Of a stretch of DNA of 64,000 nt, positions 7,635 to 13,607 are shown piece after piece (positions within the stretch are counted from its first letter, which is position 1; every line of letters starts with the position of its first letter). This stretch comes from Candidatus Hodarchaeota archaeon (lineage in GTDB: Archaea; Asgardarchaeota; Lokiarchaeia; Sigyniarchaeales; SOKP01). The stretch is from assembly GCA_048887225.1 (NCBI GenBank), contig JBHLJY010000005.1, positions 32,001-96,000 of the forward strand, written 5' to 3'. The translations under genes were made by a program, and so were the position numbers. Below the pieces are notes generated by a model, which did no database searches, had not been told where the DNA came from, and was given only the letters and a program-made list of their open reading frames with translations.

Positions 7635-7688
7635 CAAATTAAATAAGTTATATTAGAAATAATTAAATTGCTGAATTTATTACCTATT

Positions 7689-9005
7689 ATGATGGATTAC
7701 GAAAAATGGTTAAAATTTAAAGACTTAGAATATCGTGAAGGAATTCTATATATGGCAGATGTCAATACTGTAGATATAGCTAAAACATATGGCACACCAA
7801 TTTATGTTATTAACGAGGATTTGATTAGAAAAAGATATAAAACATTAAAGAAGGTTCTCAACTCAGTTTATAAAAACAACCAAGTTCATTTTGCGATGAA
7901 AGCTAATTCAAGTTTATCTATTCTGAAAATACTTAAATCCGAAGGTGCTTATTTTGATTGTACTTCCACAGGAGAAATTTATACATGTTTTAAAGCAGGA
8001 ATATCATCTGAAAAAATAATATATACAGGAAACATGTTTACTAACGAGGATTTTAAATTCGCTGTAGAGAATGATATATTGGTCAATTTAGATAGTATCA
8101 GCCAAATAAAGAGACTTGCGAAGGTATACGATGATTTAAGAAAAGAAAAAAACTTAATTTCTTTTAGAATAAATCCAGAATTTGGAGCCGGACACCATTC
8201 ACACGCGATAACGGCAGGAAAAGACATAAAATTTGGTATTTTAGAAGATCAAGTAATGGAGGCTTATTCAAAAGCTAAAGAATATGGATTTAAAAAATTT
8301 GGTACACATATTCATGTAGGTTCTGGTATTCTCGATCCTAATGATTTTGATAAAGCAAGTGAAAAATATCTAGCGATTATCACGAAATTAGCAGATACAC
8401 TTGATATTCAGTTTGATTTTGTGGATTTTGGAGGAGGATTAGGCATTCCATATCGTCCAGAAGAGGATCCTTTGGATTTAGAAGTATACAAGGAGGTTAT
8501 TATAAAAAAGTTTAAGGAATTAATTGAAAAAGGAGATATGAATCAAGCAAATTTTAAAATTGAACCAGGTCGTTTTCTGACAGCTGAAGCGAGTATAATT
8601 TTAACACAAATTAATACCATTAAAGACAACGGATATAAATTATTTGCAGGAGTAAATGCTGGATTTAATACTTTAATGAGACCTATACTTTATAACAGTT
8701 ATCACCATATAATATTATGTAATGAAAATGAAAGAAAAAAACGAGTAAGATATGATGTTGTTGGACCAATTTGTGAATCCGGTGATGTTTTGGGAAAAGG
8801 AAGGCTCTTACCAGAGTTAAGGGAAGGAGATTTTTTAGCTATACTCGATACGGGGGCGTATGGGTATACAATGAGTAGTCCATATAATTCAAGACCTAGA
8901 CCTGCGGAAGTTTTAATCAATGATGGAAAATCTTATTTAATAAGAAATGCAGAAAATTATGATGACCTTCTAGACCAACAGATTATTCCTAAGCATTTAA
9001 AATAA
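7689..9005 (+). CDS. lysA: Diaminopimelate decarboxylase
   Basis: FAMKAN (PLP Lys), HVGSG, DFGGGLG, EPGR, GPICESGD, GAYG. Confidence 0.95.
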   Translation: MMDYEKWLKFKDLEYREGILYMADVNTVDIAKTYGTPIYVINEDLIRKRYKTLKKVLNSVYKNNQVHFAMKANSSLSILKILKSEGAYFDCTSTGEIYTCFKAGISSEKIIYTGNMFTNEDFKFAVENDILVNLDSISQIKRLAKVYDDLRKEKNLISFRINPEFGAGHHSHAITAGKDIKFGILEDQVMEAYSKAKEYGFKKFGTHIHVGSGILDPNDFDKASEKYLAIITKLADTLDIQFDFVDFGGGLGIPYRPEEDPLDLEVYKEVIIKKFKELIEKGDMNQANFKIEPGRFLTAEASIILTQINTIKDNGYKLFAGVNAGFNTLMRPILYNSYHHIILCNENERKKRVRYDVVGPICESGDVLGKGRLLPELREGDFLAILDTGAYGYTMSSPYNSRPRPAEVLINDGKSYLIRNAENYDDLLDQQIIPKHLK

Positions 9006-9130
9006 TTTTCAAGATTAAATTTCTAATTTTTTAATCAAAATAAATAAATATTTTATTCATCTTTTTTATATTAAGATAAAATTATAAAAACGAGAACGAT
9101 TAAGGCTTGGATACCCTTTAATCCTTCTTT

Positions 9131-9193
9131 ATGAAGATTAGGCGCAACGAAATCTGCTTAAAACAGATTAATGAGAATACTGATCTGTCCTGA
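9131..9193 (+). ncRNA. Box C/D guide sRNA (core; true ends uncertain, possibly ~9095-9200)
   Basis: C box ATGAAGA 9131-37; D' ACGA 9147-50; stem AATCTG/CAGATT 9151-56/9164-69; 3-nt bulge and C' ATGAGAA 9171-77; D box CTGA 9190-93; D-guide complementary to the conserved SSU h34 sequence; GC-richer island followed by a T-tract. Confidence 0.75.
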
Positions 9194-9252
9194 TTATTTT
9201 TTATAATTTTATCTTATTTTCTTTTTTGAAAAAAAGTAAAATAGTTGTAGAT

Positions 9253-10074
9253 TTATAAATTTAAGACTTCACGTGTATTATATATCTTATTTTCTCTAGC
9301 TTTAGATATAAATTTTATAGCGGTTATTGACCCATTGGCAAAACACATTCTACTATGAGCTTGATGTTTTAATTCGATTCGTTCACCAGGACCAGCGTAT
9401 AAAACAGTATGATCACCAACTATATCACCTGCGCGGATAGAATGAACGCCTATTTCGTTTTTAGCGCCAATTAACCTTTGATTAGGTCCTAAGTTGCGAC
9501 CAAATTTTGCTATATCGTTAAATTCACTCCCAATTGTATCACCTATAATTTTTCCAATGGTTAATGCCGTCCCAGAAGGTGAATCTCGCTTCCTATGATG
9601 ATGGGCTTCGATTATTTCTATGTCCCAATCTTCTAAATAATTTGTCAAAATAGACACCATTTTGAAAAAAATATTTACGCCTGTAGCCATATTTGACGAA
9701 ACAACAGCTGGCGCTTCATTTTCTTTCACTAATTTCTCAAATTCTTTAAAGAATTTTTCAGAAAGTCCAGTAGTTCCAATTACACAACGGATTCCATTCT
9801 TAACACAGATCTTACAATTATTCTCTGTTGCTTTTGCGATTGAGAAATCCACAGCAACATCTGGATTTGTATTAACTATAATCTCTTGAAGATTTTCAAC
9901 ATTACTAATTATTAATTTATTAGGATCTTTAGTGCCAGCTATATTGCCTAACATATCACCAATATTACTTACATCACAAGCAGCAACAACTTCAATCTCA
10001 TTATCTTCTAAAGCTAACTTGCTAATTAATCTACCCATTGAGCCATTTGCGCCTAAAATTATTAATTTAATCAA
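9253..10074 (-). CDS. dapB: 4-hydroxy-tetrahydrodipicolinate reductase
   Basis: GANGSMG, GTTG, EAHHHRKRDSPSGTA, RAGDIVGDH; TTG at 10074 after the GGTGG SD preferred. Confidence 0.95.
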   Translation of the reverse strand: MIKLIILGANGSMGRLISKLALEDNEIEVVAACDVSNIGDMLGNIAGTKDPNKLIISNVENLQEIIVNTNPDVAVDFSIAKATENNCKICVKNGIRCVIGTTGLSEKFFKEFEKLVKENEAPAVVSSNMATGVNIFFKMVSILTNYLEDWDIEIIEAHHHRKRDSPSGTALTIGKIIGDTIGSEFNDIAKFGRNLGPNQRLIGAKNEIGVHSIRAGDIVGDHTVLYAGPGERIELKHQAHSRMCFANGSITAIKFISKARENKIYNTREVLNL

Positions 10075-10089
10075 ATAAAACACCACCTT

Positions 10090-12611: not shown

Positions 12612-13607
12612 TTGAATTATTTAGACAAATTCCAAGGCTGTTTATTAGGCGTAGCAATAGGGGATACTTTAGGACATCCTTTTGAAGGAAAATTAAGAGC
12701 TGAAATATATTCACATTTTAAAAATTTTGAAGATTTTATATACAATAACAGAAGATTATTTAATACATATACTGATGACACACAGCTCACATTACACACT
12801 GCTGAAGCGTTAATTCGAGGAAATGGATTCAACCTTAATAATTTTATCAGTGAATACATTAAATGGTTGGATGATCCTCCAATTGGTCCTGGATATGGTT
12901 GTATTTCTTCAATCAGAAGATTAAAATATGGTATAATTAGGGAAGAAGCTGCTTCTAATTCTGGTGGCAATGGAACAGCCATGCGAATTGCGCCAGTTGG
13001 ACTATTTTATTGTAAAGATTTAATAGGTTTAAAAACAGTAGCAATCAAATCGAGTAAAATTACACACTCTCATCCTGCCGCTTCTGCTGGAGCAGTCGTT
13101 ATTGCAAGAGCTATTGCTTATTTAATTGAAAAAAATCCAAAAACAAAATTTTCGGTTGACGAATTTTTTGATACTATAATATCTTCTATCTCTGGCTCTC
13201 AGCACGAGATTTGGGAAGAATTTATCAAGATCTTACATAAATTAAAATCGAATCTCGATTTATCAATAGAGGCAGCTTTAATAAAATTCTCACAAGCGGG
13301 CGTAAAATCACCTTATTTTATAGAACAATTCTTAGGACAAGCTTTTGTACATCCTTACACTTTAAGTACAGTAGCGTGCGCAATTTTTATCTTTTTAAAA
13401 AGGTTAGATTCATTTAAAGAATGTATCTTTGAACTTTCTACTGCTGGAGGAGATAGTGACACAACCGGAGCAATTGGAGGCAGTCTAGCCGGAGCGTATT
13501 TTGGTCTAAAGAATATTCCAAATAATTTGATAAAATTAGTTAAAAATTATAATAAAATTTTGAAAATTTCCGAAACTCTTTACAATAAATTTGAGGAGCT
13601 TTATTAA
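12612..13607 (+). CDS. ADP-ribosylglycohydrolase (DraG/ARH family)
   Basis: AIGDTLG, YTDDTQ, GNGTAMRIAP, THSH, GGDSDTTGAIGG. Confidence 0.92.
   Translation: MNYLDKFQGCLLGVAIGDTLGHPFEGKLRAEIYSHFKNFEDFIYNNRRLFNTYTDDTQLTLHTAEALIRGNGFNLNNFISEYIKWLDDPPIGPGYGCISSIRRLKYGIIREEAASNSGGNGTAMRIAPVGLFYCKDLIGLKTVAIKSSKITHSHPAASAGAVVIARAIAYLIEKNPKTKFSVDEFFDTIISSISGSQHEIWEEFIKILHKLKSNLDLSIEAALIKFSQAGVKSPYFIEQFLGQAFVHPYTLSTVACAIFIFLKRLDSFKECIFELSTAGGDSDTTGAIGGSLAGAYFGLKNIPNNLIKLVKNYNKILKISETLYNKFEELY

Follow-up and report, generated by a model that had tools for sequence, protein, structure and literature searches.

The gap between a lysA-type gene (Orn/DAP decarboxylase, 7668-9005, + strand) and dapB (9253-10086, - strand) very probably holds a real and conserved box C/D guide RNA. 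The two flanking genes, assigned with Pfam, form a convergent pair within the 64,000-nucleotide stretch of DNA that was analysed here, called the window throughout. The locus appears to encode a + strand RNA of about 145 nt, located at roughly 9071-9218 and built around a box C/D core at 9131-9193. We consider it likely that this RNA is a working methylation guide, aimed at the 3' strand of 16S rRNA helix 34. No ORF of at least 40 aa was found in the gap. A cmscan of positions 8950-9300 against Rfam, at E values up to 10, returned no family and a single spurious lncRNA match, and no family was matched at gathering score anywhere in the window; Rfam-based pipelines miss the RNA gene at this locus. 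What is new is the conserved elaboration of the RNA, that is, two outer helices (P1 and P2) and a C'/D' motif closed by a stem, together with the breadth of its guide across Asgard lineages; the RNA gene is present in over 100 Promethearchaeota genomes.

An earlier note on this DNA had proposed an unannotated box C/D guide RNA at 9131-9193 in the lysA/dapB gap. Its placement of the gene and the absence of annotation were both borne out, and the boxes, stem, bulge and guide that it listed are all present exactly where it put them. The 63 nt that it described form the box C/D core of the RNA; the full extent, at about 145 nt, is greater, with two more conserved helices outside that core.

Box motifs and conservation across relatives

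The core was compared across 39 aligned sequences. Box C reads AUGAAGA (ATGAAGA in the DNA; 9131-9137, + strand), of which A, U, G, A, G and A were unchanged in 39/39 sequences, while position 5 was A in 36, U in two and G in one. The consensus for box C is RUGAUGA, from which the window departs at this same position (U5 to A). A D' spacer of 9 nt, TTAGGCGCA / UUAGGCGCA, follows at 9138-9146, and then box D' (ACGA, 9147-9150), which is AUGA in 37/39 relatives. The G and A of box D' never changed; its second position was U in 38 of the aligned sequences and C in the window, where it would pair with G9175. The P3 hairpin (AAUCUG/CAGAUU with loop CUUAAAA, 9151-9169) closes the predicted C'/D' kink-turn, its strand AATCTG at 9151-9156 pairing with CAGATT at 9164-9169 over 6 bp. 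In the alignment, 96% of P3 cells were paired and three pairs showed compensatory changes, in agreement with the earlier description of a stem-closed C'/D' motif. A 3-nt bulge, AAU (9170-9172), overlaps box C' (AUGAGAA, 9171-9177), in which AUGA was unchanged and the following position was U in 29 sequences, A in seven and G in three. The C'/D' pairs read from the sequence are G9173.A9150, A9174.G9149 and G9175-C9148. The D guide, TACTGATCTGTC / UACUGAUCUGUC, occupies the 12 nt at 9178-9189, with C9185 as the N+5 nucleotide, and ends directly at box D (CUGA, 9190-9193), which was identical in 38/39 sequences.

The pattern of variation within the boxes fits a predicted pair of kink-turns. No variation was observed in the GA dinucleotides of any of the four boxes, and the D-box spacing was exact, in all 39 sequences. 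The box positions that do vary are exactly the 3b.3n positions of the kink-turns, which face each other beside the G.A pairs. At C'/D' this pair was U.U in most sequences, G.U in one relative (G009) and G-C in the window; at C/D it was A-U, U.U or G.U. Both C/D and C'/D' thus carry the kink-turn signature at the sequence level, each with a constant 3-nt bulge beside a covarying helix (P2 and P3, respectively). Judged by sequence, the RNA would qualify as a box C/D guide, the one trait that it lacks being a second working guide.

The relatives used for comparison were metagenome-assembled genomes of Promethearchaeota (Asgard). In a BLAST search of 40 relatives, the gap was found at 72-86% identity in 16 genomes from the same genus and family; the amino acid identity of the flanking proteins in those relatives (59-84%) is no higher than this. 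A covariance model (R1) built from 17 sequences found the full-length RNA in 106/131 family genomes, as well as divergent copies in two sister families (f2 and f3); two single-contig f2 genomes were also searched and yielded no copy. Across family relatives the position between lysA and dapB was kept, with a single copy per genome at the syntenic site. The conservation of boxes and guide in relatives, which the earlier note had named as a check on its proposal, was therefore found. Sequencing runs that share part of this DNA are mostly sediment metagenomes, and among the runs on record holding positions 8700-9600 of the window, none is listed as RNA.

Extra copies of the RNA were observed in some genomes of two sister genera, 0.3-1.5 kb from the main gene (L059:1133-1240 and L059:1501-1645 in G058; L058:27-137; L046:1925-2058; L050:2971-3104). 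Most are remnants of the 3' half, in which the guide is kept and P2 and box C are missing. The main copy in G058 has its D box mutated to CUAA; the functional copy in that genome may instead be an upstream paralogue, in which a canonical GAUGAUGA and the P2 loop are present.

Outer helices, proposed junction topology and candidate transcription signals

Alignment and RNAalifold revealed two helices beyond the core. P1 is a terminal stem of 17 bp, in which AAGAUAAAAUUAUAAAA (9073-9089, + strand) pairs with the U-rich strand UUUUAUAAUUUUAUCUU (9199-9215). Across the aligned sequences 95% of its cells were paired, and eight of the 17 pairs showed compensatory changes. When read on the + strand, the wobbles in P1 comprised 32 G.U and two A.C in the 39 sequences, a bias indicating a helix formed by RNA of the + strand and not a palindrome of the DNA. 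In a single-sequence fold of the locus, P1 came out at 19 bp (z = -5.1). P2 is a hairpin with a 14-bp stem (9092-9105 with 9116-9129) that includes one C.C mismatch, a CUU bulge at 9106-9108 and the invariant tip GGAUACC at 9109-9115. Both sides had changed in 10 of the 14 stem pairs (RNAalifold and pair counts), GGATACCC was invariant, and the P2 loop was kept in the f2 and f3 homologues. For P1, P2 and P3 taken together, 91.6% of cells were paired, as compared to 40-56% when the partners were slid by one to three columns; 21 of the 39 proposed pairs were compensatory, with both sides changed, and none of 500 shuffles reached the observed values.

The arrangement of these helices around boxes C and D suggests an unusual topology. 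The kink-turn bulge, UAU (U9130-A9131-U9132), lies between the last pair of P2, G9092.U9129, and the predicted tandem pairs G9133.A9193 and A9134.G9192, and the distance from P2 to the GA of box C was a constant three columns in both alignments (A1 and A2). Since the last P2 pair adjoins the 3-nt bulge, P2 would act as C helix to the kink-turn of boxes C and D. The non-bulged strand, that of box D, would then carry P1 as an inserted third helix, an arrangement that would correspond to the definition of a k-junction (PMC4005666, PMC10573300). The C/D kink-turn would in this way become a three-way k-junction, a topology that we infer from the covariation-supported secondary structure. Three other readings of these helices were considered and set aside. 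The tip of P2 is not a k-loop, given that it has no G.A/A.G signature, and P1 is not a bulge-helix-bulge splice motif, its stem being unbroken. The P2 loop GGAUACC can be set against GGUAUCC of 16S rRNA (about E. coli 1081-1087), a 7-mer match of the kind that chance would give, which also occurs in 23S rRNA and is not evidence of pairing.

Candidate promoter elements were sought by column counts over 38 homologous loci, numbered relative to the model start at 9071. An A-rich, TATA-like block, AAATAAATAAATA (9038-9050, + strand), is a candidate BRE/TATA element with a predicted start at about 9071, the foot of P1; A was present in 33-36 of the 38 loci at -33 to -30, T in 33 at -26, and the columns from -25 to -21 were A-rich. 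A T-rich, TATA-like block, ATCTTTTTTATA (9059-9070, + strand), is an alternative TATA with a predicted start at about 9092, the foot of P2; here T was present in 31-34 of the 38 loci at -9, -7 and -4, and A in 29 at -3. The first block is favoured because the G.U pattern of P1 is one-sided. The 5' strand of P1 was also considered as a promoter and rejected, as the start would then lie within the covarying P2. Archaeal terminators are U-rich, and the 3' strand of P1 with the sequence following it, itself U-rich, may serve as a termination signal. Upstream of the promoter-like block and after the lysA stop codon (9003-9005), a run of six Ts was observed in AATTTTTTAA (9027-9033). This run may terminate lysA transcription, in keeping with a separate transcription unit for the RNA.

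The predicted helix 34 target and alternative explanations

The 16S and 23S rRNAs were not found in the assembly of this genome, so those of relatives were used in the search for a target. The D guide paired at 12 of 12 positions (10 Watson-Crick, two G.U) with GGCAGGUCAGUA in the 3' strand of 16S helix 34, the one zero-mismatch site in the 16S and 23S rRNAs of relatives; the next-best rRNA sites had 1-3 mismatches and more wobbles. Shuffled guides equalled this match in 1.4-1.6% of trials (p ~0.015). The target sequence GGCAGGUCAGUAU was identical in 26 family genomes, two of them of the same genus, and is exactly the sequence that the earlier note had given from rRNA consensus. The N+5 pair is the Watson-Crick pair C9185-G, its partner being the first G of CAGGUC; it was C-G in every sequence, and alignment to E. 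coli rrsH places the partner at E. coli position 1197, in helix 34. Both the pairing with helix 34 and the nucleotide selected by the rule counting five from box D, as proposed in the earlier note, are supported by the rRNA genes of relatives. Among 32 tRNA genes predicted by ARAGORN, the best match to the guide had one mismatch. A second exact copy of the guide word (contig C8:4878) was rejected, as it has no boxes.

Nine of the 12 guide positions never varied among the 39 sequences. Directly before box D the window has GUC and relatives have GCU, with pairing to GG kept in either case. The G.U wobble at guide position 6, beside the N+5 pair, is kept across the family; in one relative (G013) a C replaces the U and the wobble becomes G-C. 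Four relatives have C or A at guide position 9, and the 16S pieces binned with two of those four keep A at the partner of this position; covariation between guide position 9 and 16S rRNA was not found. This position faces E. coli 1201. It was observed to be C in G003, G007 and G015, whose binned 16S rRNAs keep A, and a 16S piece in G026 (L153, G026:C80:1233-1248) was observed to read GGCAGGTCGGTATGCC, with G and not A at 1201. The 23S genes of G013, G003 and G006 (L033, L034, L035) measured 3352-3517 nt as compared to the 2987 positions of the archaeal model, a difference that points to insertions or introns.

On the D' side, the UUGGC core of the spacer was conserved and the three nucleotides beside D' varied. 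The homologue in f2 has UUGGCGAC as its D' spacer, which pairs over 8 bp with GUCGCCAG of 16S rRNA, on the strand opposite the D target; in the window, 4-5 bp to 16S rRNA remain. A second functional guide with the archaeal spacing of 12 nt was looked for at D' and not found, the spacer being 9 nt. Judging by the pairing in f2, the family's UUGGC is probably what is left of a former second guide, and the D' spacer was probably once antisense to the 5' strand of helix 34 and has since decayed. Eukaryotes commonly have one-sided guides, so lacking a second guide does not exclude the RNA from the box C/D class.

The same guide was found well beyond the family. A pattern of C'-like ATGA, guide and box D, scanned across the phylum with the reversed pattern as control, was present in 118/400 genomes as compared to one match for the control. 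Outside the family it was found in 6/6 genomes of family f21, with a perfect ACUGACCUGC and with the target sequence carried by a 16S rRNA from f21, and also in members of f3, f15, f17, f19, f25, f29 and f31; the guides outside the family were mostly perfect copies of ACUGACCUGC. The scaffolds around the guide differ between families. Those of f19 (L104, L105, L106) were observed to be compact C/D sRNAs with a terminal stem and a dual guide. The f19 D' guide, ACAUGCACCU, matches AGGUGCAUG in the 5' strand of helix 34; the f19 D guide is the guide to the 3' strand, so that a single sRNA is directed at the two strands of the helix. A D' guide nearly the same as that of f19 is found in Pyrobaculum sR49. 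In f17 (L103) and f21 (L107-L112) the helix 34 guide lies between box C and D', not between C' and D, with a second box pair downstream, such that the halves are swapped relative to the window.

Genes for the protein machinery were found in this genome. Nop5 and fibrillarin are encoded by adjacent genes on contig C13 (PF01798, PF01269), and two genes of the L7Ae family (PF01248) were located on contig C2. A strict dual-guide C/D pattern had no matches over the genome and thus provided no local set of sRNAs for comparison. A looser scan, for boxes with an 11-nt guide, gave 123 matches as compared to 109 with reversed rRNA and so does not discriminate; one of its matches in the window (12772-12806) was dropped because it lies within an ORF. 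Literature searches for surveys of C/D sRNAs in Asgard archaea found none.

The proposed mechanism is as follows: boxes C and D would form one kink-turn, and C' and D' a second, closed by P3. L7Ae would bind the kink-turns, and Nop5 and fibrillarin would assemble there, all three being encoded in the genome. Through its 12-nt guide, upstream of box D, the RNA would pair with GGCAGGUCAGUA, and fibrillarin would methylate the 2'-OH of the G opposite C9185 (E. coli 1197, yeast G1428, human G1490), a decoding-centre nucleotide predicted to sit above the A site. In this species the 9-nt D' side probably does not guide methylation. Transcription of the RNA, its folding into kink-turns and a k-junction, the binding of these proteins, and the methylation itself are all predicted steps.

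Perhaps the most serious alternative is that an RNP of box C/D type attaches to the two strands of nascent helix 34 and serves mainly to chaperone its folding or assembly, with methylation weak or absent. The G.U conserved family-wide beside the N+5 pair and the uncompensated mismatches at guide position 9 would fit such a role, as would the second short antisense element to the opposite strand of helix 34, clearly seen in the dual guide of f19 and in the homologue from f2; for Pyrobaculum, guide-target pairings that are conserved yet lead to no methylation have been discussed (PMC6009581). We nevertheless judge this explanation unlikely. The N+5 pair itself is Watson-Crick C-G throughout, the D-box spacing is exact in 39/39 sequences, the guides of other families are fully Watson-Crick, and eukaryotes methylate exactly this nucleotide, all of which argue for a methylation guide.

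The location of the RNA, directly downstream of lysA on the same strand and in a convergent gap, raises a different possibility: a cis element of the lysine genes (a stabiliser of the lysA 3' UTR, a bidirectional terminator, or a switch controlled by L7Ae) in place of a trans-acting guide. The U-rich hairpin stem of P1 could terminate or protect transcripts, and the link to lysA and dapB is kept across the family. A terminator, however, needs neither invariant C/D boxes nor an equally invariant stretch of 11 nt complementary to 16S rRNA, and a conserved promoter-like block lies upstream of P1. The guide also occurs in other Asgard families, where the flanks seem unrelated (by eye only), and in Pyrobaculum sR32, making a cis role very unlikely. 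Least credible of all is that short motifs came together by chance in AT-rich intergenic DNA, or that the locus is a MITE with P1 as its ends. The genome is 30% G+C, so that ATGA and CTGA words are common, the naive scan for boxes and guides barely separates real from reversed rRNA (123 and 109), and P1 is an inverted repeat. Conservation and covariation already contradict this explanation: the RNA occurs once in each genome, at a syntenic position, covariation is present in each of the three helices, with G.U on one strand only, and the pattern control gave one match against 118. A conserved methylation guide is the reading that we prefer.

Comparison with known guide RNAs and k-junctions

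Canonical archaeal box C/D sRNAs are 50-60 nt long and run from box C through 12 nt to D', a loop of 3-9 nt, C', 12 nt and box D. The RNA described here shares with them the order of the boxes, the 12-nt D spacer, the N+5 rule, the kink-turn signatures and the protein genes. It differs in its length of about 145 nt, its D' spacer of 9 nt, and a C'/D' motif that is closed by a 6-bp stem and not by a k-loop; in addition, on the C side of the predicted terminal kink-turn a long hairpin takes the place of the paired RNA ends, and these ends pair with each other in a 17-bp stem of their own. To our knowledge, known k-junctions occur in riboswitches and do not serve as platforms for L7Ae and Nop5, nor do we know of a box C/D RNP structure that yet shows one. 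A C/D kink-turn whose C helix is a hairpin, with both termini of the RNA paired in a third helix, would be a new L7Ae/Nop5 platform. The best comparison for the proposed junction is with the k-junction of the TPP riboswitch (Wang et al. 2014, PMC4005666; PMC10573300), whose counterparts here would be P2, the UAU bulge, boxes C and D, and P1; the linkers, at 1-3 nt and 3-5 nt, differ from those of known k-junctions.

The closest published guide is that of Pyrobaculum calidifontis sR32 (PCAsR32; Dennis et al. 2015), which carries UACUGACCUGCG followed by an AUGA D box (PMC4644070, Additional file 1) and belongs to a set of archaeal sRNAs based on RNA-seq (PMC4644070). As in the window, its guide lies directly before box D and in the same register as UACUGAUCUGUC, leading to the same predicted G of 16S helix 34. 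Unlike the RNA here, sR32 measures a compact 49 nt, its C'/D' loop spans 3 nt, its guide is Watson-Crick throughout and its D box is AUGA; it comes from a hyperthermophilic crenarchaeon and has no P1, P2 or P3. The likeness described here is that of the guide. Its presence in Pyrobaculum means that the target is not specific to Asgard archaea, and, with a published crenarchaeal sRNA covering the same target, the function is an ordinary one for archaea. The Pyrobaculum guide further suggests that modification of helix 34 is old in archaea.

Eukaryotic snoRNPs use Nop56/Nop58 and Snu13, and U25 carries its guide upstream of D', not D. The position of the target in eukaryotic rRNA can be fixed from primer F-1422 (ATAACAGGTCTGTGATGC), which is numbered on S. 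cerevisiae 18S rRNA, Z75578 (PMC3917833). By that numbering, the first G of CAGGUC is yeast G1428; as a cross-check, primer F-1624 from the same table puts C1639 at the expected Cm1639 (E. coli C1402). Yeast Gm1428 is made by snR56 and is equivalent to human Gm1490, made by U25 (PMC2794176, PMC3511168, PMC4344503), so the mapping proposed in the earlier note was right. Equivalent sites are Arabidopsis Gm1431/1434, Dictyostelium Gm1506 and Plasmodium Gm1674. The RNA in the window is thus predicted to target the nucleotide homologous to that of SNORD25 (U25), snR56 and AtsnoR19 (RF00054, RF01188; clan CL00049). The comparison with Rfam SNORD25 and snR56 that the earlier note had suggested, run by cmscan at E up to 10, found no similarity, whether in sequence or to the covariance models. 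In eukaryotes the target reads CAGGUCUGUG and in archaea CAGGUCAGUA, and any likeness between the guides is forced by the target and provides no evidence of descent.

Asgard archaea are the archaeal group closest to eukaryotes, and the idea of an Asgard counterpart of snR56/U25 has two sides. The same site is predicted to be modified; the guide, as sR32 indicates, is archaeal and not specifically Asgard, and may be either an orthologue or a convergent analogue. We regard it as doubtful that the Asgard RNA and SNORD25/snR56 are orthologues and that the helix 34 Gm guide was inherited unbroken from archaea to eukaryotes. Were that the case, this would be one of very few snoRNA families traceable beyond the last eukaryotic common ancestor, and its form in Asgard archaea, built on a k-junction, would resemble eukaryotic snoRNAs in its long terminal stem, its single working guide and its degenerate C'/D' motif closed by a stem. 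The comparison with known systems leaves a conserved Asgard guide predicted to be aimed at a decoding-centre nucleotide that is methylated in yeast, humans, plants, Dictyostelium and Plasmodium.
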